This document shows positions 1,288-48,010 of a stretch of DNA of 64,000 nt, piece by piece (the stretch's first letter is position 1; the number at the start of each line of letters is the position of its first letter). Location: assembly GCA_036351455.1 (NCBI GenBank), contig JAZBPC010000077.1, forward strand, positions 1,387 through 65,386. Reading direction: 5' to 3'. The notes beneath the pieces were generated by a model. It saw only the letters and a list, made by a program, of their open reading frames with translations, ran no database searches and was not told the origin of the DNA. The stretch comes from Desulfuromusa sp. (lineage in GTDB: Bacteria > Desulfobacterota > Desulfuromonadia > Desulfuromonadales > Geopsychrobacteraceae). The translations under genes were made by a program, and so were the position numbers.

Positions 1288-1776
1288 ATGAATGTTTTTG
1301 ATTATGCTTTAAAAATGGAACTTGATGGTAAAGCTTTCTATGAAAAATTGGCGAAGGAAACAGAATCTGAGGGGCTGCGGAAAATATTTAACGAATTAGC
1401 AGAAGATGAACAAAAGCACTATGATATTTTCTCTCAGCTTAAAGAAAATAAGAACATAAAATCAATGCCTGATAGTGTTGCCCTTGAGGGTGCAAAAAAT
1501 GTTTTTACTGAAATGCAGAAAGATGTGTCCTCGCAGAAGTTACTGAAGACAAACCTTGATGCTTACCAGCAAGCAATGAACGCTGAAAAAGAAAGTGCTA
1601 AGCTATATCGTGACGCTGCTGCAAAAGAAGAAAATACCGAAGTTAAAGCATTGCTTCTTAAGATTTCCATAGAAGAAGAGAAACACCTTAACATTCTGGA
1701 AAATATTTTTGATTTTGTAAATGCACCGACACAGTTACTGGTTTGGGGGGAGTTCAGCAATCTTAAAGAATATTAG
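1288..1776 (+). CDS. Ferritin-like/rubrerythrin family protein
   Basis: Duplicated E-x(29-32)-EE-x2-H diiron motifs (ELDGKAFY...AEDEQKH; EKESAKLY...EEEKH). Start moved from 1270 to ATG 1288, which follows AGGAG. Confidence 0.85.
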   Translation: MNVFDYALKMELDGKAFYEKLAKETESEGLRKIFNELAEDEQKHYDIFSQLKENKNIKSMPDSVALEGAKNVFTEMQKDVSSQKLLKTNLDAYQQAMNAEKESAKLYRDAAAKEENTEVKALLLKISIEEEKHLNILENIFDFVNAPTQLLVWGEFSNLKEY

Positions 1777-8808: not shown

Positions 8809-9396
8809 ATGAGACAAATCATTCTGGCTTCAACCAGCCCTTACCGAAAGCAGCTTTTAAAACAGTTGGGTTTATCATTTGTGACTGCAGCACCTCAATT
8901 TGTTGAAGAGATTGATGCAAATGTGGCTCCGGCATTGCTGGTCCGTCATCTTGCTCTTGGGAAGGCGCAAAGTTTAGCAGAATCTTATTCTGATGCCTTG
9001 ATTATCGGTTCTGACCAGGTCTTTGTTGATCAGCGGAAGCGACCCATTGGTAAGGCCGGAAATCTACAAGCGGCATTGCAACAATTGAAACAAATGGTTG
9101 GCCAAACCCACTGCTTTTACACCGGGTTGGCATTATTGGATAGCCGTAGCGGAGCAGTGCAAACAGATTATGCGACTTTTTCGGTCAGTTTCAGGCAGCT
9201 GACGGATGAGCAGATTTATAGTTATTTGCAGCGGGAGAAACCATTTGATTGCGCCGGATCCTTCAAGATAGAGGGTTTGGGAATTGCTCTTATGGAGAAA
9301 ATGGATGGTGAGGACTATAATTCTCTTATTGGGCTCCCTTTAATAAAGTTAGTCAGTATGCTGGAAGTCGCAGGGGTCAATATTTTAGAGGGATAG
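8809..9396 (+). CDS. maf: Maf-family nucleotide pyrophosphatase, YceF-like (m7GTP)
   Basis: ILASTSPYRKQLL, IIGSDQV, CAGSFKIEGLG, SLIGLPLIKL. The aromatic residue after SP and the Q after D point to the YceF subtype. Confidence 0.85.
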   Translation: MRQIILASTSPYRKQLLKQLGLSFVTAAPQFVEEIDANVAPALLVRHLALGKAQSLAESYSDALIIGSDQVFVDQRKRPIGKAGNLQAALQQLKQMVGQTHCFYTGLALLDSRSGAVQTDYATFSVSFRQLTDEQIYSYLQREKPFDCAGSFKIEGLGIALMEKMDGEDYNSLIGLPLIKLVSMLEVAGVNILEG

Positions 9397-9475
9397 AAGA
9401 TGAGCTCCCTTTCATTTTTCTCTTGATTTATTTCTTTTTCCTAACTAGTATAGACTACAAAATATAGCGCATAGC

Positions 9476-9560
9476 TATCTACCGAAAGGGCAAAGCTGGA
9501 GAGATCCAGTGACGCAAAGCCACGGGTCCTCATTTTAGGATAGCCGGGTTGCCGAAGAAG
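9476..9560 (+). promoter_or_regulatory. c-di-GMP-I (GEMM-I) riboswitch aptamer 1
   Basis: CGAAAGGGCAAA-GCTGGA-GAGA-TCCAGT-GACGCAAAGCCACGGGTCCT...AGGATAGCCGGGTTGCCGAA: P2 with GNRA tetraloop, GACGCAAAG junction, P3 and 3' GGGTTGCCGA. The G20-equivalent (9489) is G. Confidence 0.92.
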
Positions 9561-9603
9561 ATTCAGCGGACTTCTTCAAGCCTTTTGTATATAATGTCTT
9601 GGG

Positions 9604-9639
9604 AAACGCTCACTTCGGCAACGTAGTGAGCGTTTTTTT
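9604..9639 (+). terminator. Intrinsic terminator, expression platform of riboswitch 1
   Basis: AAACGCTCAC-TTCGGCAACGTA-GTGAGCGTTTTTTT. Confidence 0.85.
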
Positions 9640-9715
9640 GTGGCTGCGATATATTTATTGTAGAGCATACATTTTAGAAGTTGTGCAAAAAAAGGTGTAT
9701 AAACAAAAGAGGAAC

Positions 9716-9800
9716 ATTGTCTCCGAAAGGGCAAAGCCAGAGAAATCTGGTGACGCAAAGCCACGGGTCCTGATTTCAGGATAGCCGGGTTGCTGAAGGG
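9716..9800 (+). promoter_or_regulatory. c-di-GMP-I (GEMM-I) riboswitch aptamer 2
   Basis: CGAAAGGGCAAA-GCCAGA-GAAA-TCTGGT-GACGCAAAGCCACGGGTCCTGA...TCAGGATAGCCGGGTTGCTGAA. Compensatory stem changes relative to copy 1. The G20-equivalent (9730) is G. Confidence 0.92.
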
Positions 9801-9841
9801 AATGCAGCGTAAGACTTCCATCTGTTTGGTATGGTCTACAG

Positions 9842-9878
9842 TGCGCTCATCTTCGGCAACGGTGGTGAGCGCATTTTT
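9842..9878 (+). terminator. Intrinsic terminator, expression platform of riboswitch 2
   Basis: TGCGCTCATC-TTCGGCAACGGT-GGTGAGCGCA-TTTTT. Confidence 0.8.
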
Positions 9879-9913
9879 GTACAGACACTCACGAAAAGGC
9901 ATCGGGGGTACAA

Positions 9914-12900
9914 ATGAAAAAACTGATAACCATAAAATTTATTCTACTTATTCTGTCTTCCGTAGTTTTTTCGACCCATGTGTGGGGAAAAACAGTCACC
10001 CTTTCTTGGGACGCCAGTCCGAGTACTGTTACCGGTTATAAGGTTCATTATGACACCGAGTCCTCTGCTTCGTTGTTAGGTACTGGAGCTGATGAGGGTA
10101 ATTCACCTATTACTGTCGGAAATGTTTTGACCTACGTGATTCATGGTTTGCCGGATGACTCTGATCATTATTTTGCGGTGACAGCCTATGATAGTACTGA
10201 CAATGAAAGTGTTTATTCGAACCTTGTCCATAGTCCAATAGTCAGTAATAGCAATACTCCCCCCGTTCTTGCATCTATCGGAAATAAAACAGTTCTGGAA
10301 GGTGCAACCTTAACTTTCACCCTTTCTGCGACCGATGCTGATGGTGATTCTTTAACTTATGCCGTTAACAATTTACCTGATGGTGCTGGATTTAATAACT
10401 CAACGGGTGCATTCAGTTGGTCCCCTGAATTCGACCAATCTCAAATTTATGCAGTGACTTTTTCAGTGAGTGACGGCAGCGATACCGATACGGAAACAAT
10501 TAATATTACGGTCTCGGATATCAACCAGGCGCCAATACTCAATACGATCGGGACAAAGACTATCGGTGAAGGATTCCCACTGGCGTTTACTGTCTCAGCT
10601 AACGATTTAGATAATGATGCTTTGAGTTACAGTGCGGAGGGTTTGCCTGAAGGAGCTGAATTTGACTCTACTACCCGCTCATTCAATTGGACCCCAGAAG
10701 TCATGGCTTCTTCAAACGCTCGTGTTTACCCGGTTATTTTCATAGTTAGTGATGGTGCGGCAGACGATTCAGAACTTGTTACCATAAACGTTACAAATGT
10801 TAATCAAGCTCCAGTTCTAACGCCAGTTGGAGCAACAAGTATTACCGAAGGTGATATTTATAATTTAATTATTGAGGCTGTTGATCCAGACAATGATGCG
10901 CTGACTTACACGGCTAGTGGTCTTCCGGAAGGTTCGGTTTTTACCCCTTCAACACGTTCCTTCAGTTGGATACCGGGGAATGACCAGTCTGGTAGTTATC
11001 AGGTGACATTTAACGTCAGTGATGGGTTTCTCAGTGATTCTGAAACAGTTCCGTTTACCGTTAATAATGGTAACGAAGCCCCTATCCTGGATGCTATTGG
11101 GGCCAAGTCAATTGCAGAAAATTCTTTGCTGTCATTTGTGATATCTGCCAACGACATAAACGGTGACAGTCTTAGCTACAGTGCTTCTGGACTTCCACCT
11201 GGAGCAGTATTTGATGCTGCTCAGCAGCGTTTTAGTTGGACCCCTGATTACACGCAAGCAGGTAACTTTACGGTGGTCTTTAGTGTTACCGATGAGTTGT
11301 TCATTGATTCCGAAACTGTCGAAATAACAGTTACGAACTACAATCGAACGCCTGTTATCAGTGGTACCCCTGGGGGGGCGACTATGGCAACAACAAGCTA
11401 CTCTTTTACTCCGATCGCCAGTGATCCTGATGGCGACCCTCTTACCTTTTCCATCGTGAATAAGCCGAACTGGGCTAGTTTTAGTTCGTCTACCGGAGAG
11501 CTGAGTGGTACGGCGACAGCAGATCAGGTTGGCACAAGTTCAAATATAATTATCAGTGTCAGCGATAGTATCGGCAGTACCTCTCTGTCGCCATTCTCAA
11601 TTGACGTAATTGCCTATGTTCAGCAGGATTCTGACGGTGATGGAGTTCTAGATCATTTGGATGCATTTCCTGATGATATTAACGAATGGGTCGATACCGA
11701 TGGCGATCAAATTGGTAATAACAGCGATCTGGATGATGATAATGATGGAATAGCTGATATTCGTGATGGTTTTCCGCTCGACAGTACTAAGTCTGGATGG
11801 ATTATTTCAGCGACTGCAGGAACAGGTGGATATCTCACTCCAGAGGGGAATACCTCGGTACTTTATGGCGGTTCACAGGGCTATCAATTAACGCCAATGG
11901 CAGGATATTACATCCATGATTTATTGGTTGACAATGTTTCGGTTGGTTTGGTTGAGAATTATGTTTTTGAAAATATAGGAGATCATCACAGCATTACAGC
12001 AGTTTTTGCACCAATCCCAACAGGCCTCAGCCAGAATCCGATTTCGTCTGGGCTTATTGGAGTTGAAAGGGTCGATGGTGGTGATGACAGCAGCAATCTG
12101 GTTGATGGTAAACCAAAGCAGGATCTTGATTACCGCTTCCGGGTTGTATTCCGTGATTCGGTTGCTGCTGATCAACGCAAGGTTTTCTTGATCTTGGATA
12201 ATTATAAATACGAGATGCAAAATGCTGGCGGTGCACTTACTAGCGGTGCTGATTATACCTTTACAACCCGTTTGGGAGCTTCATTCTCGCATCGATTCTA
12301 TTTCACTGTCGAAGATGCGTCAGGCACGCAACTGTGGCGTTATCCGGGGAGTGGTGATTTTCCCGGTCCTGCGGTATCACTCCTCGATGGTAAGAATGTT
12401 GTTGGAATCGCCGCAAAGATTAATGCTTATGCCTTGGATGCTATTGAGGCATTTAACGAAAAGCTGGTGTATCGCTGGGATCCTGAAGCTGGACCTAAGG
12501 GGCAATTTGAACTGGTTGGCTTCGGTGCTCCTGTTGCGTCTGGAGAAGGTTATGTCTTAAAGCGTTCTACAGATACGACTCTGCCTGATCTTAGTATCTA
12601 CGGCACAATTACTGATTCTACCTATGAATTTCAAGTTAAACCGGGGTGGAATATTATCAGCAATCCTTACGGGGGAAATATCTCTCTGTCTGACATCGAA
12701 GTTCGTTCAGGGGATGATGCACCTGTCTCTTGGTTGCTAGCCGCTGAGAACAATCTGGTTGTTGATGTGATTTATTCCTATCTTGGAAAAGATTGGGGTA
12801 ACACAAACGAATTTTCAAGTGCAACCGGAACTAAACCAGCGGTCCTTATTCCGTGGATCGGTTACTGGATTTATATTAATCAGACAGATCAGCCCGTTTC

Positions 12901-12928
12901 TCTACTGATTCAAAAGCCTTTGCAGTAA
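9914..12928 (+). CDS. Secreted surface/adhesin-like protein: signal peptide, FN3, five Ig/cadherin-like repeats, Ca-binding TSP3-like repeats, InlB-B-like repeat, unknown C-terminal domain
   Basis: Sec-type signal peptide; VTLSWDASPSTVTGYKVHY...YFAVTAYD (FN3); five N.aP.L..ig...D.DgD.L.Y...LP.GA.F...F.W.P repeats; DSDGDGVLDHLDAFPDD and DTDGDQIGNNSDLDDDNDG. Confidence 0.8.
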   Translation: MKKLITIKFILLILSSVVFSTHVWGKTVTLSWDASPSTVTGYKVHYDTESSASLLGTGADEGNSPITVGNVLTYVIHGLPDDSDHYFAVTAYDSTDNESVYSNLVHSPIVSNSNTPPVLASIGNKTVLEGATLTFTLSATDADGDSLTYAVNNLPDGAGFNNSTGAFSWSPEFDQSQIYAVTFSVSDGSDTDTETINITVSDINQAPILNTIGTKTIGEGFPLAFTVSANDLDNDALSYSAEGLPEGAEFDSTTRSFNWTPEVMASSNARVYPVIFIVSDGAADDSELVTINVTNVNQAPVLTPVGATSITEGDIYNLIIEAVDPDNDALTYTASGLPEGSVFTPSTRSFSWIPGNDQSGSYQVTFNVSDGFLSDSETVPFTVNNGNEAPILDAIGAKSIAENSLLSFVISANDINGDSLSYSASGLPPGAVFDAAQQRFSWTPDYTQAGNFTVVFSVTDELFIDSETVEITVTNYNRTPVISGTPGGATMATTSYSFTPIASDPDGDPLTFSIVNKPNWASFSSSTGELSGTATADQVGTSSNIIISVSDSIGSTSLSPFSIDVIAYVQQDSDGDGVLDHLDAFPDDINEWVDTDGDQIGNNSDLDDDNDGIADIRDGFPLDSTKSGWIISATAGTGGYLTPEGNTSVLYGGSQGYQLTPMAGYYIHDLLVDNVSVGLVENYVFENIGDHHSITAVFAPIPTGLSQNPISSGLIGVERVDGGDDSSNLVDGKPKQDLDYRFRVVFRDSVAADQRKVFLILDNYKYEMQNAGGALTSGADYTFTTRLGASFSHRFYFTVEDASGTQLWRYPGSGDFPGPAVSLLDGKNVVGIAAKINAYALDAIEAFNEKLVYRWDPEAGPKGQFELVGFGAPVASGEGYVLKRSTDTTLPDLSIYGTITDSTYEFQVKPGWNIISNPYGGNISLSDIEVRSGDDAPVSWLLAAENNLVVDVIYSYLGKDWGNTNEFSSATGTKPAVLIPWIGYWIYINQTDQPVSLLIQKPLQ
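10253..11615 (+). repeat. Five tandem ~90-aa putative Ig/cadherin-like repeats (protein level)
   Basis: Units start NTPPVL, NQAPIL, NQAPVL, NEAPIL and NRTPVI. They are diverged at the DNA level. Confidence 0.8.
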
Positions 12929-12935
12929 CAGGAGA

Positions 12936-14177
12936 ATGACCATGAACAGATTCCTTGCGATAATTGTATCTCTGTTTGCCTTGCTCTCCTTATGCCTGTT
13001 GTCAGCCTGTGGGGGAGGTGGGGGTGGGGATTCAAGCGGAACCAGCAGAACAGCGGATGATGGAGGACCTTCTGTGGTAACAACTTTATCCGGGACAGTT
13101 GCCGATGGTTATCTTCGGGATGCGCGAGTCTTTCTCGATCGGAATAATAATCGTGTCTATGACAATGGAGAACCGACGGCACAATCAACAACAGGAGGGA
13201 GCTACTCTTTAAATGTAAATCCTGGTGATGGAAACCTGTATCCTGTTGTAGCACAAGTTGTCGCGGGGCAAACAATTGACGAAGACAGTGGAGCACCAGT
13301 TGTTCATAGCTATTTGCTGGAATCATTACCCGGCCACTGGCAGTTTGTGTCTCCTTTGACGACCTTGGTAACGTTGGAGAGGGATAAAAACCCATCCTTT
13401 TCTCAACAGCAGGCTGAAATTTCAGTTCGGTCTCAGCTTGGGATCGCAGACTCCGTTTCCCTTTTTGCTGATTATATTACTTTCGGGAGTGTTGATGCTG
13501 ATTTAGCTGCAGAATACAATCGCACCCACAGGGTAGCGCAAACTGTTGCCAATCTCATGGGGAGTCTGCGAGCCAGTATCTCTCGGAATCTGGGTGGGGT
13601 CATTAATAATTCTGAACAGCGGTTGGTCTCTTATATGGTGAGTGATCAGATCCTCTGGCAGTCGGCGCTGATCGAAGAGGCCTTCAACAACGAACGCAAC
13701 CTGGGTTCGTTGGTCGATGTTGTTTCTTTAACCAATGATATTGCTGGTGAAATTAATACAGTAAGTTTGGACATCGCTTTGTTAGCTCTTTATCAGCAGA
13801 GGGTAGAGCAAAACTTTGATATCTGGGATATGTTGCCTCCTCAAGTTCAAAGTCTATCTCCGCCAGCAGGCGATACGGCTTCAGTTGGGACGATTATTTC
13901 TCTCTCTTTTGATGAATTTCTTGATGAGACTTTATTGGATGACAATTCCATTGAACTATCAGGTCCTAATGGCCTGGTTTCCGGCAGTCTGAATTATGAC
14001 TCTGAGCATAAGAGGTTGACATTCATACCGGGCCAGCTTCTGATACCTTTCAGTAATTATCAGGTGACAGTCAATGGGCGGTTAGCCGATATCCTTGGTA
14101 ATTCCCTAGGAGAAAACATAACCTGGACGTTTACAACAATCTTTGATCAAATGCCGCCGCCACTTCCGGATTTCTGA
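12936..14177 (+). CDS. Lipoprotein with an N-terminal SdrD-B/carboxypeptidase-regulatory-like domain and a C-terminal Ig-like (Big_5/SbsA-type) domain
   Basis: Lipobox LLSAC followed by a Gly run; LSGTVADGYLRDARVFLDRNNN...GEP; ISLSFDEFLD...LTFIP...YQVTV...DILGN...WTFTT. Starts 7 bp after the adhesin stop. Confidence 0.75.
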   Translation: MTMNRFLAIIVSLFALLSLCLLSACGGGGGGDSSGTSRTADDGGPSVVTTLSGTVADGYLRDARVFLDRNNNRVYDNGEPTAQSTTGGSYSLNVNPGDGNLYPVVAQVVAGQTIDEDSGAPVVHSYLLESLPGHWQFVSPLTTLVTLERDKNPSFSQQQAEISVRSQLGIADSVSLFADYITFGSVDADLAAEYNRTHRVAQTVANLMGSLRASISRNLGGVINNSEQRLVSYMVSDQILWQSALIEEAFNNERNLGSLVDVVSLTNDIAGEINTVSLDIALLALYQQRVEQNFDIWDMLPPQVQSLSPPAGDTASVGTIISLSFDEFLDETLLDDNSIELSGPNGLVSGSLNYDSEHKRLTFIPGQLLIPFSNYQVTVNGRLADILGNSLGENITWTFTTIFDQMPPPLPDF

Positions 14178-47652: not shown

Positions 47653-47762
47653 TCCGATCAGAGCATCAATGATTGGTTTACTAAAAGACGATAGAATTTT
47701 TTTTGTTGGATTAATTAACTTGACTTAGTCAGCTATTTTCGGTTGAATCTGTTTCAGTTTAA

Positions 47763-48010
47763 AAGCATTGAAGAGGAGTAGTAAGCTTTTTCTCCGTTTC
47801 AGAGAGTCGGTGGTTGCTGCAAACCGATACGGGAAGAGTTGAACTCGCCTTGGAGCTGCAGGGGTGAAACCATATTGGGTCTAGCTTCTGTCGTGAGCCT
47901 GCGTAAAGGGATAATTAAGATTTGTCTGTTTCTAGGACAAATGAACCAGGGTGGTACCGCGAAGCTTAAAGCTCTCGCCCCTGTTTACAGGGCGGGGGCT
48001 TTTTTTATTT
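47763..48010 (+). promoter_or_regulatory. T-box riboswitch, Leu specifier (CUC), transcriptional
   Basis: Stem I AG box and distal loop AGAGAGTCGGTGGTTGCTGCAAACCGA; specifier loop GAA-CTC-G (47844-47846); T-box AACCAGGGTGGTACCGCG (47944-47961); terminator AGCTCTCGCCC...GGGCGGGGGCTTTTTTT. Lies directly upstream of leuA. Confidence 0.9.

Follow-up and report, generated by a model that had tools for sequence, protein, structure and literature searches.

The DNA considered here is a stretch of 64,000 nucleotides (nt) from Desulfuromusa sp. (assembly GCA_036351455.1, contig JAZBPC010000077.1, positions 1,387 to 65,386), called the window below and used for all coordinates, and the element under study is a leader of ~460 nt that precedes an operon for a secreted Ig/cadherin-repeat, adhesin-like protein. 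We propose that this leader consists of two independent, complete and canonical riboswitches for cyclic di-guanosine monophosphate (c-di-GMP) of the c-di-GMP-I class, arranged in series, each of them an OFF switch like Cd1 (Cdi1_3), the c-di-GMP-I riboswitch that acts on transcription before the flgB flagellar operon of Clostridioides difficile (Landgraf 2022, PMC9262584). According to this OFF-OFF reading, to which we give a probability of roughly two in three, transcription would stop when c-di-GMP is high. The polarity is well supported in silico, because pairing between the 3' strand of the aptamer (strand A) and the top of the terminator (strand T) is the minimum free energy (MFE) state before the terminator is completed, because the design resembles Cd1 and because the complementarity is found clade-wide. 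That two tandem c-di-GMP-I units are present is, in itself, nearly certain.

Pairing between aptamers and terminators

An earlier note, made from the sequence alone, had described two full aptamer-plus-terminator units with compensatory stem changes and had suggested the covariance model RF01051 as a check. The coordinates and complementarities given in that note proved correct throughout. Both units were recovered by Rfam as full-length aptamers of the GEMM-I clan on the + strand, 241 nt apart (Table 1), with RF01051 scores above the cut-off of 35 bits and model positions 1-87 covered. The two units are 81% identical, and the compensatory changes were found again as two pairs in P2, the GNRA-capped first hairpin (GCUGGA/UCCAGU vs GCCAGA/UCUGGU, with the tetraloops GAGA and GAAA). 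In unit 1, P1 is probably extended by pairing of AUCU 9476-9479 with AGAU 9559-9562, and would then comprise AUCU-A-C-CG (9476-9483) with CG-AA-G-A-AGAU (9553-9562).

The intrinsic terminators lie 44-46 nt 3' of the aptamers, and the MFE structure of the full-length RNA retains the aptamer hairpins together with the terminator. Predicted energies are -21.1 kcal/mol for the first terminator hairpin (9601-9638), which was also picked up by the genome-wide terminator scan, and -22.6 kcal/mol for the second (9840-9875). As the earlier note had pointed out, the same 10-mer, CTTCGGCAAC, is present in both terminators (9613-9622 and 9851-9860), and its reverse complement occurs exactly at 9548-9557 and with one mismatch, a G-U pair in RNA, at 9789-9798. 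The duplex of the A and T strands of unit 1 reaches -17.2 kcal/mol. The placement of the 10-mer almost entirely in the terminator loop had to be given up, however: five of its bases (C9613, U9614, C9616, G9617 and C9622) are paired in the MFE hairpin of unit 1, and only U9615, in a 1x1 mismatch, and GCAA 9618-9621 are unpaired. The 10-mer is the apical 5' stem with its tetraloop, the order of pairs being C-G, U-A, the U/U mismatch, C-G and G-C below the GCAA (GNRA) tetraloop, and unit 2 is analogous.

The A:T complementarity exceeds chance. Pairing of the aptamer 3' strand with 896 terminator-like hairpins from this genome gave a mean of -9.0 kcal/mol (standard deviation 2.8), and the two local terminators, at -17.7 and -17.3 kcal/mol, were among the four best partners.

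Folding of growing transcripts, which the earlier note had also suggested, was carried out as stepwise MFE prediction with no ligand term and is thermodynamic only; it gave the A:T helix before the 3' arm of the terminator was made, and the terminator afterwards. In unit 1, the local hairpin GAAGAAG/CUUCUUC was the first to form, at 3' ends 9578-9617, and was lost once the A:T helix had formed; this helix (9548-9557 with 9613-9622, 7-10 base pairs (bp)) was the MFE state without terminator at 3' ends 9620-9629, and the terminator became the MFE structure only at 3' ends of at least 9632. In unit 2, the A:T helix was present without terminator at 3' ends 9855-9873, growing from 4 to 10 core pairs, and the terminator was the MFE structure only at 3' ends of at least 9876. 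The GAAGAAG/CTTCTTC hairpin, which had been suspected of changing the logic of the switch, is real and appears in the folding series, but it is displaced in silico and is not predicted to reverse the OFF logic.

The anti-terminator role that had been assigned to the 10-mer was borne out in so far as A:T pairing is the MFE state before termination; its extent had been drawn too small. In unit 2, the antiterminator comprises 17 bp, interrupted slightly at two points; it is formed by GUUGCUGAAGG-GA-UGCA (9789-9806) with UGCG-UC-UCUUCGGCAAC (9842-9860) and spans the entire 5' arm of terminator 2. Once this unit has reached full length, no more than 0.4 kcal/mol separates its antiterminator state from its terminator state, in favour of the terminator. 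In the antiterminator state of unit 1, the 10-bp helix encloses the pairing of AGCG 9565-9568 with CGCU 9607-9610, and also that of the hairpin UUCU/CAAG (9572-9580) with CUUG/GGAA (9598-9605); together, these helices occupy 18 of the 22 positions of the terminator 5' arm (9601-9622).

The antiterminator excludes the ligand-bound aptamer, because the ligand-contact C lies in strand A together with the base of P3 and the P1 3' strand; aptamer and terminator, by contrast, are compatible with each other. The four segments P-A-T-H would therefore be arranged as [PA][TH] with ligand and as P[AT]H without it, the classical layout of an OFF switch. In the ligand-free transcript P1 would be weak, and in unit 1 the local hairpin 9554-9577 would first take up the P1 3' strand. 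As soon as the terminator top emerges, strand A would pair with it and form the antiterminator, that is GUUGCCGAAG with CUUCGGCAAC plus the two smaller helices in unit 1 and the 17-bp helix in unit 2; nearly all of the terminator 5' half would then be filled, and RNA polymerase could read through. Bound c-di-GMP would keep strand A in P1, P3 and the ligand pocket; T would then pair with H as the terminator, and transcription would end. Expression would require read-through at both gates, which is expected to make repression tighter and steeper than that of a single unit ("pseudo-cooperative"). We also considered that GCUAUCU (9474-9480), the P strand when free, might pair with GGAUAGC (9538-9544), but do not claim this here, as the partner varies in orthologues without compensation.

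Conservation of the pairing and weighing of the polarity

RF01051 was searched in 41 genomes, namely 40 relatives and this genome, and gave matches in 36 of them. About 20 tandem pairs have a spacing of ~210-270 nt and two more of ~440-460 nt; 20 tandem loci were retrieved for comparison. The same two-unit leader is present in at least 15 Desulfuromusa genomes, mostly after maf and before an orthologous gene (MKK...WGKTVTLSWD...), and the Maf orthologues, which are 78-85% identical, belong to Desulfuromusa metagenome-assembled genomes and to Desulfuromusa kysingii DSM 7343, a strain in which the orthologous tandem leader is also present (L043/L058).

Judged from these sequences, the A:T complementarity is conserved across the order and specific to GEMM-associated terminators. 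The motif CTTCGG follows within at most 130 nt in 39 of 53 GEMM-I units of the order, and others carry CTCCGG or CTTTGG. Within 135 nt, strand A of most units pairs best with the terminator top, and this partner ends 7-12 nt short of the U-tract. Across the genome, CUUCGG was found in only 7 of the 896 terminator-like hairpins, three of them GEMM-associated and four with true C(UUCG)G tetraloops. We rejected the idea that CUUCGG in the units is itself an ordinary C(UUCG)G tetraloop on two grounds: the GEMM-associated hairpins put CUUC in the stem and begin the loop at GG, and the four terminators bearing the motif outside GEMM units, the only such ones genome-wide, are all real UUCG tetraloops.

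Compensatory change is seen at position 74. Where G74 of strand A is replaced by A (GUUACC), strand T has changed from C to U in all three cases (3/3), as compared with 6 of 42 units with G74 (Fisher p = 0.006), and the two units of one locus (L040) differ in exactly this A:T pair. Across 13 orthologous sequences, 95% of the 17-bp antiterminator of unit 2 is paired, as compared with 22-53% after sliding of the partner; one compensatory pair was seen in it, along with several single changes compatible with wobble pairing. Terminator 2 is 97.6% paired in the orthologues. When 46 units were folded as transcripts ending just after T, five or all six of the core A:T pairs were present in the MFE structure of 25 of them. 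An apparent covariation of AGCG (9565-9568) with CGCU (9607-9610) in unit-1 orthologues was not counted, since the comparison was made by eye and the register shifts the wrong way.

Several observations weigh against the OFF-OFF reading. The covariation evidence is real but thin, because divergence is low: the A and T positions are mostly invariant, there is a single compensatory pair type, and the changes at position 74 probably represent just two independent events. Seven unit-2 orthologues have an A-C mismatch in the core (CUCCGG), which perfects the apical terminator stem instead. Among the 46 folded units, 11 had none of the six core A:T pairs in the MFE structure and 10 more had only three or four. 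P1 was absent from all MFE predictions made without a ligand term. In unit 1, the 10-bp A:T helix alone does not touch the lower terminator stem (9604-9612 with 9627-9635), a strained pseudoknot may still be able to terminate, and the terminator at full length is ahead by ~10 kcal/mol. Unit 1 is therefore workable only as a kinetic switch, and the kinetic window between the emergence of T and that of H is only a few nucleotides. Finally, repression of an adhesin-like gene by c-di-GMP is contrary to the common biofilm logic.

The best of the alternatives builds on some of these points. It takes the aptamers to be real but their polarity not to be OFF: the A:T pairing would merely tune aptamer folding or hairpin stability, and the units would be constitutive attenuators, or ON switches by another pairing, in which the lower terminator stem still forms through a pseudoknot or through faster local hairpin folding. 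We consider this unlikely. Although the terminator is the full-length MFE structure in all 46 units, in unit 1 by the difference given above, the same thermodynamic profile is seen in Cd1, which experiments have shown to be OFF. The 10-mer of unit 1 spans only the apical part of the hairpin, but the unit-2 antiterminator takes up the whole 5' arm and equals the terminator in energy. The majority of the characterised GEMM-I switches of Geobacter type, pilM among them, are ON, and ON is also the literature default for delta-proteobacterial GEMM RNAs; in the leader, however, the complement of strand A has no directly adjoining U-tract, unlike in the ON design of pilM. An ON logic in which the ligand frees CUUCUUC (9571-9577) from 9554-9560 was rejected as well, since this sequence can pair only with 9598-9605, which is not part of the G+C core of the terminator, and ligand binding thus frees no terminator-blocking sequence. 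The computational tests all agree with the earlier note on the identity of the units, the antiterminator and the predicted polarity. We infer the direction of regulation and its kinetics, and OFF-OFF remains the reading that we prefer.

The comparison of tandem loci also yielded observations on the leaders themselves. In two genomes (L035, G022:C46; L036, G011:C230), the tandem leader stands before a gene with a prepilin-type N-terminus (…GFTLVEVLVAL…) and not before the Ig/cadherin-repeat protein, which makes the leader look like a movable module that serves genes for surface structures. In two Desulfuromusa genomes, an insertion of ~200 nt separates units 1 and 2 (L041, ~270-480; L050, ~270-500) and leaves both units intact; inverted repeats, GAATGGCGCTAGTTTAAGGAA ... 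TTCCTTAAACTAGCGCTATTC, form its ends, GGGACAGCCCCC/GGGGACAGTCCC repeats lie inside, and it resembles a miniature inverted-repeat transposable element. A second tandem GEMM-I family in relatives (L040, L042, L048, L052) carries an added mini-hairpin in the linker, UCCG-GCAA-CGGA. Its CCGGCAAC is complementary to GUUGCCG(G) of the aptamer, as is the terminator top CUUCGGCA, so that each unit of this family has two candidate antiterminator or anti-aptamer elements; the extension, ATGAG:CUCAU vs ATGAA:UUCAU, shows apparent covariation.

Ligand class, gene context and wider occurrence

Automated annotation would give the leader another name. In the cmscan search, the best member of the clan was RF03167 (c-di-GMP-I-GGC), with 65.5 and 65.0 bits for the two units, which exceeds its cut-off of 59 by only 6 bits. 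We take the name of the GGC variant to refer to positions 20, 47 and 92. The RF03167 consensus has G at model position 37, the equivalent of A47 in Vc2, while both copies here have A, and the RF03167 match is not specific to the tandem units, since a GEMM-I RNA on contig C84 of the same genome also matches, with 65.4 bits. The label is misleading, and the GGC identity was rejected, the defining G47 being missing and the RF01051 bit scores being higher. Both aptamers are canonical c-di-GMP-I by all features that can be tested in sequence, because they score higher with RF01051 and because the equivalents of G20, A47 and C92 are present (G9489, A9516 and C9552 in unit 1; G9730 for G20 and C9793 for C92 in unit 2); c-di-GMP is their presumed ligand. 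The pocket lies in the same context in both copies, AGG-G-GCAAA for G20, ACGC-A-AAG for A47 and UUG-C-CG/UG for C92, where the G20 equivalent is the base directly 5' of GCAAA, the A47 equivalent follows ACGC and the C92 equivalent precedes the P1 3' strand.

A ligand other than c-di-GMP, either that of the orphan c-di-GMP-I-GGC class or 3'3'-cyclic GMP-AMP (cGAMP) as in the GEMM-Ib type common in Geobacter relatives, is very unlikely in view of these findings. The RF03167 rank that speaks for the former comes with an alignment mismatch at model position 37 in both copies. As to the latter, A20-type GEMM-I RNAs do occur in the same genome, on contigs C84 and C30, but by the first-position rule G20 goes with c-di-GMP and A20 with cGAMP (PMC9481103), and cGAMP specificity was rejected because both copies have G, not A, at this position; the Cd1 constructs G11C and G11A agree with the mapping of G20 (PMC9262584). 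Clan competition in Rfam was seen to call the canonical G20/A47/C92 aptamers of this clade the GGC variant despite their higher RF01051 bits, and automated annotation of Desulfuromonadales genomes may over-report that variant.

Both units sit between a Maf-family gene and the gene of the 1004-amino-acid (aa) protein (Table 1), which has a signal peptide, an fn3 domain, five He_PIG/Big_9 repeats, cadherin-like domains and Asp-rich repeats of calcium-binding type. The putative promoter of the leader scores under the threshold of a consensus promoter scan, and its arrangement of TTGATT, 17-nt spacer and TAnnnT keeps the same spacing at the orthologous loci. In the same scan, no promoter-like site was found between unit 1 and unit 2, and both units presumably lie on one transcript.

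Table 1. Features of the tandem leader and adjoining genes (positions in the window; A and T strands as defined in the text)
Feature	Position	Strand	Remarks
Maf-family gene	8809-9396		upstream of leader
Putative sigma-70 promoter of leader	9423-9451	+	-35 TTGATT 9423-9428, 17-nt spacer, -10 TAGTAT 9446-9451
Riboswitch 1 aptamer (c-di-GMP-I)	9476-9562	+	Rfam match 9480-9557; RF01051 70.0 bits
A strand, unit 1, GUUGCCGAAG	9548-9557	+	base of P3, ligand-contact C, P1 3' strand
Local hairpin GAAGAAG/CUUCUUC	9554-9577 (9554-9560 : 9571-9577)	+	competes with P1 for P1 3' strand
Intrinsic terminator 1	9601-9639	+	stem 9601-9617 : 9622-9638, GCAA tetraloop 9618-9621, U-tract 9633-9639 (T7)
T strand, unit 1, CUUCGGCAAC	9613-9622	+	apical 5' stem, tetraloop, first 3' base; exact complement of 9548-9557
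Riboswitch 2 aptamer (c-di-GMP-I)	9721-9801	+	Rfam match 9721-9798; RF01051 72.4 bits; P1 reaches ~9801
A strand plus extension, unit 2, GUUGCUGAAGG-GA-a-UGCA	9789-9806	+	pairs with 9842-9860, 17 bp
Intrinsic terminator 2	9840-9878	+	stem 9840-9855 : 9860-9875, GCAA tetraloop 9856-9859, U-tract 9874-9878 (T5)
T strand, unit 2	9842-9860	+	within terminator 2
Regulated gene	9914-12928	+	1004-aa secreted repeat protein, adhesin-like; ribosome-binding site GGGGG 9904-9908
Second gene, probable operon	12936-14177	+	413-aa lipoprotein-like protein, LSAC lipobox, Big_5 domain

Just 5' of the start codon lies the sequence ACGAAAAGGCAUCGGGGG (9891-9908), which includes the ribosome-binding site and which orthologues keep as ACGAAAGGGCAUCGGG; it resembles the 5' end of the aptamer, CCGAAAGGGCAAAG. 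A vestigial third aptamer at this place was rejected, as Rfam gives no match there even at E = 1. Elsewhere in the window, a full-length T-box leader was found at 47759-47985 (+) (RF00230, 130.8 bits vs a cut-off of 93), which is unrelated to the tandem riboswitches.

That the terminated leaders (~180 nt to ~9639; ~420 nt to ~9878) are functional, c-di-GMP-dependent small RNAs (sRNAs) acting in trans, with downstream control being secondary, is the least credible of the alternatives: precedents for riboswitch-derived sRNAs exist, the terminators are strong and a conserved 5' hairpin (UAGC...GCUA, 9466-9478) could stabilise a short RNA, but neither a candidate target nor a conserved single-stranded seed was found, and in most Desulfuromusa genomes examined the leader directly precedes a gene whose product is of secreted or surface type, as in a classical cis configuration.

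If the OFF-OFF reading is true, Desulfuromusa and its relatives would silence a large secreted Ig/cadherin-repeat protein at high c-di-GMP, which would bear on how these sediment bacteria divide their surface proteins between lifestyles. It also provides a concrete prediction of polarity for a class of genes usually assumed to be induced by c-di-GMP, and the annotation of the leader is corrected to canonical c-di-GMP-I from the orphan GGC variant.

The same CUUCGG platform appears to be used by A20 (cGAMP-type) aptamers too, for example before an EAL-HDOD gene on contig C84. The idea that the CUUCGG-topped terminator of the Desulfuromonadales is a clade-wide modular OFF platform, combined with both G20 (c-di-GMP-type) and A20 (cGAMP-type) GEMM-I aptamers, is put forward tentatively, and we hold it to be somewhat doubtful. 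If true, a large share of the GEMM-I switches of the order would repress their genes, unlike the ON default for the Geobacter type, 3'3'-cGAMP OFF switches would exist, and adhesin and pilin genes would be shut by high c-di-GMP.

The unit on C84 (genome G000, locus L003, aptamer ~1501-1575, minus strand) is a single GEMM-I RNA of cGAMP type with A at the G20 position, GAUAAUAGCAAAC. Its aptamer is followed by the CUUCGG-topped terminator AAAGCCCCUCUUCGGCCAGAAGUGGGGCUUU and then by the gene of a 408-aa EAL+HDOD protein (L003:189-1415:-), a Cd1-like OFF layout that might form a cyclic-dinucleotide feedback loop; orthologous units are present in L027 and L029.

Comparison with known systems

The closest counterpart of the units described here is Cd1, for which the OFF polarity is attributed to Sudarsan 2008, as cited in PMC9262584. 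The full-length sequences of Cd1 and pilM were taken from the supplement of PMC9262584 and subjected to the same stepwise folding as the units of the leader. Cd1 belongs to the same aptamer class, has the canonical pocket and has a separate terminator that is compatible with the folded aptamer; in both systems the aptamer 3' strand (...UUGCC plus the P1 3' strand) complements the terminator top in the order P-A-T-H. The antiterminator of Cd1 was described as "transiently stable", refolding to the terminator over time (PMC9262584). In our folding, the antiterminator was the MFE structure of Cd1 only transiently (length 150) and the terminator was so at full length, and the units here likewise favour the antiterminator transiently and the terminator at full length.

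The two designs differ in the bases involved. The Cd1 aptamer 3' end, UGCCAAAAAG, is the exact complement of CUUUUUGGCA, which runs from the last base of the terminator 5' stem through the U5 loop and takes in four bases of the 3' arm, whereas the apical 5' arm and the GCAA tetraloop are complemented here. Unlike in Cd1, extra helices in unit 1 and the continuous 17-bp helix in unit 2 extend the pairing over the greater part of the 5' arm. The loop of Cd1 contains a U-stretch pause site, and none is evident in the present units. Cd1, from a Firmicute, also stands as one unit before flagellar genes, while the leader has two units before an adhesin-like gene in a bacterium of the Desulfuromonadales.

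The second point of reference is pilM of Geobacter metallireducens, a 3'3'-cGAMP riboswitch of the GEMM-Ib type and a transcriptional ON switch (PMC9262584). It shares with the units here a homologous aptamer fold, a related lineage and control through an intrinsic terminator, but its base at the G20 position is A, where the units have G, and its ligand is cGAMP. In pilM, the 3' part of the aptamer is itself the 5' arm of the terminator, and aptamer and terminator are mutually exclusive because the complement of this part directly precedes the U-tract; in the leader they are separate and compatible. By sequence layout, then, the units match Cd1 and not pilM. The RF03167 class is close to them in overall sequence, but its defining G at the A47 position is missing here, and the closeness probably reflects a model built from related delta-proteobacterial sequences.

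Tandem arrangement is common in this class. No other class has as many catalogued tandems as c-di-GMP-I, with 347 doublets and 12 triplets (Sherlock et al. 2022, PMC9481103), and such tandems have been read as pseudo-cooperative, more digital switches (PMC9481103). One third of the delta-proteobacterial GEMM RNAs were noted to be tandem when the motif was discovered, and for those with terminators, in which the terminator overlaps the aptamer, ON was the default prediction (Weinberg et al. 2007, PMC1950547). An enrichment in Thermodesulfobacteriota has been reported (PMC12452182), and the Bc3-5 triplet of Bacillus thuringiensis has been characterised (Zhou et al. 2016, as cited in PMC9481103 and PMC12452182). 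The leader shares with the catalogued tandems two complete aptamer-plus-terminator units in one 5' untranslated region, the expectation of the same ligand for both and the expected pseudo-cooperative dose-response, and its phylum fits the enrichment in Thermodesulfobacteriota.

GEMM-I tandems were already described in 2007 and OFF switches of the Cd1 design are established, so the device as such is well documented. A clade-wide OFF-type platform in the Desulfuromonadales is not explicitly documented in the literature as far as we found. The wider value is modest, and the only mildly new point is that such a platform would be dominant in an order for which ON switches are the standard example. 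Whereas the default prediction for delta-proteobacterial GEMM RNAs is ON, and the Bc3-5 triplet is reportedly an ON switch too, the two units of the Desulfuromusa leader have the layout of OFF switches.

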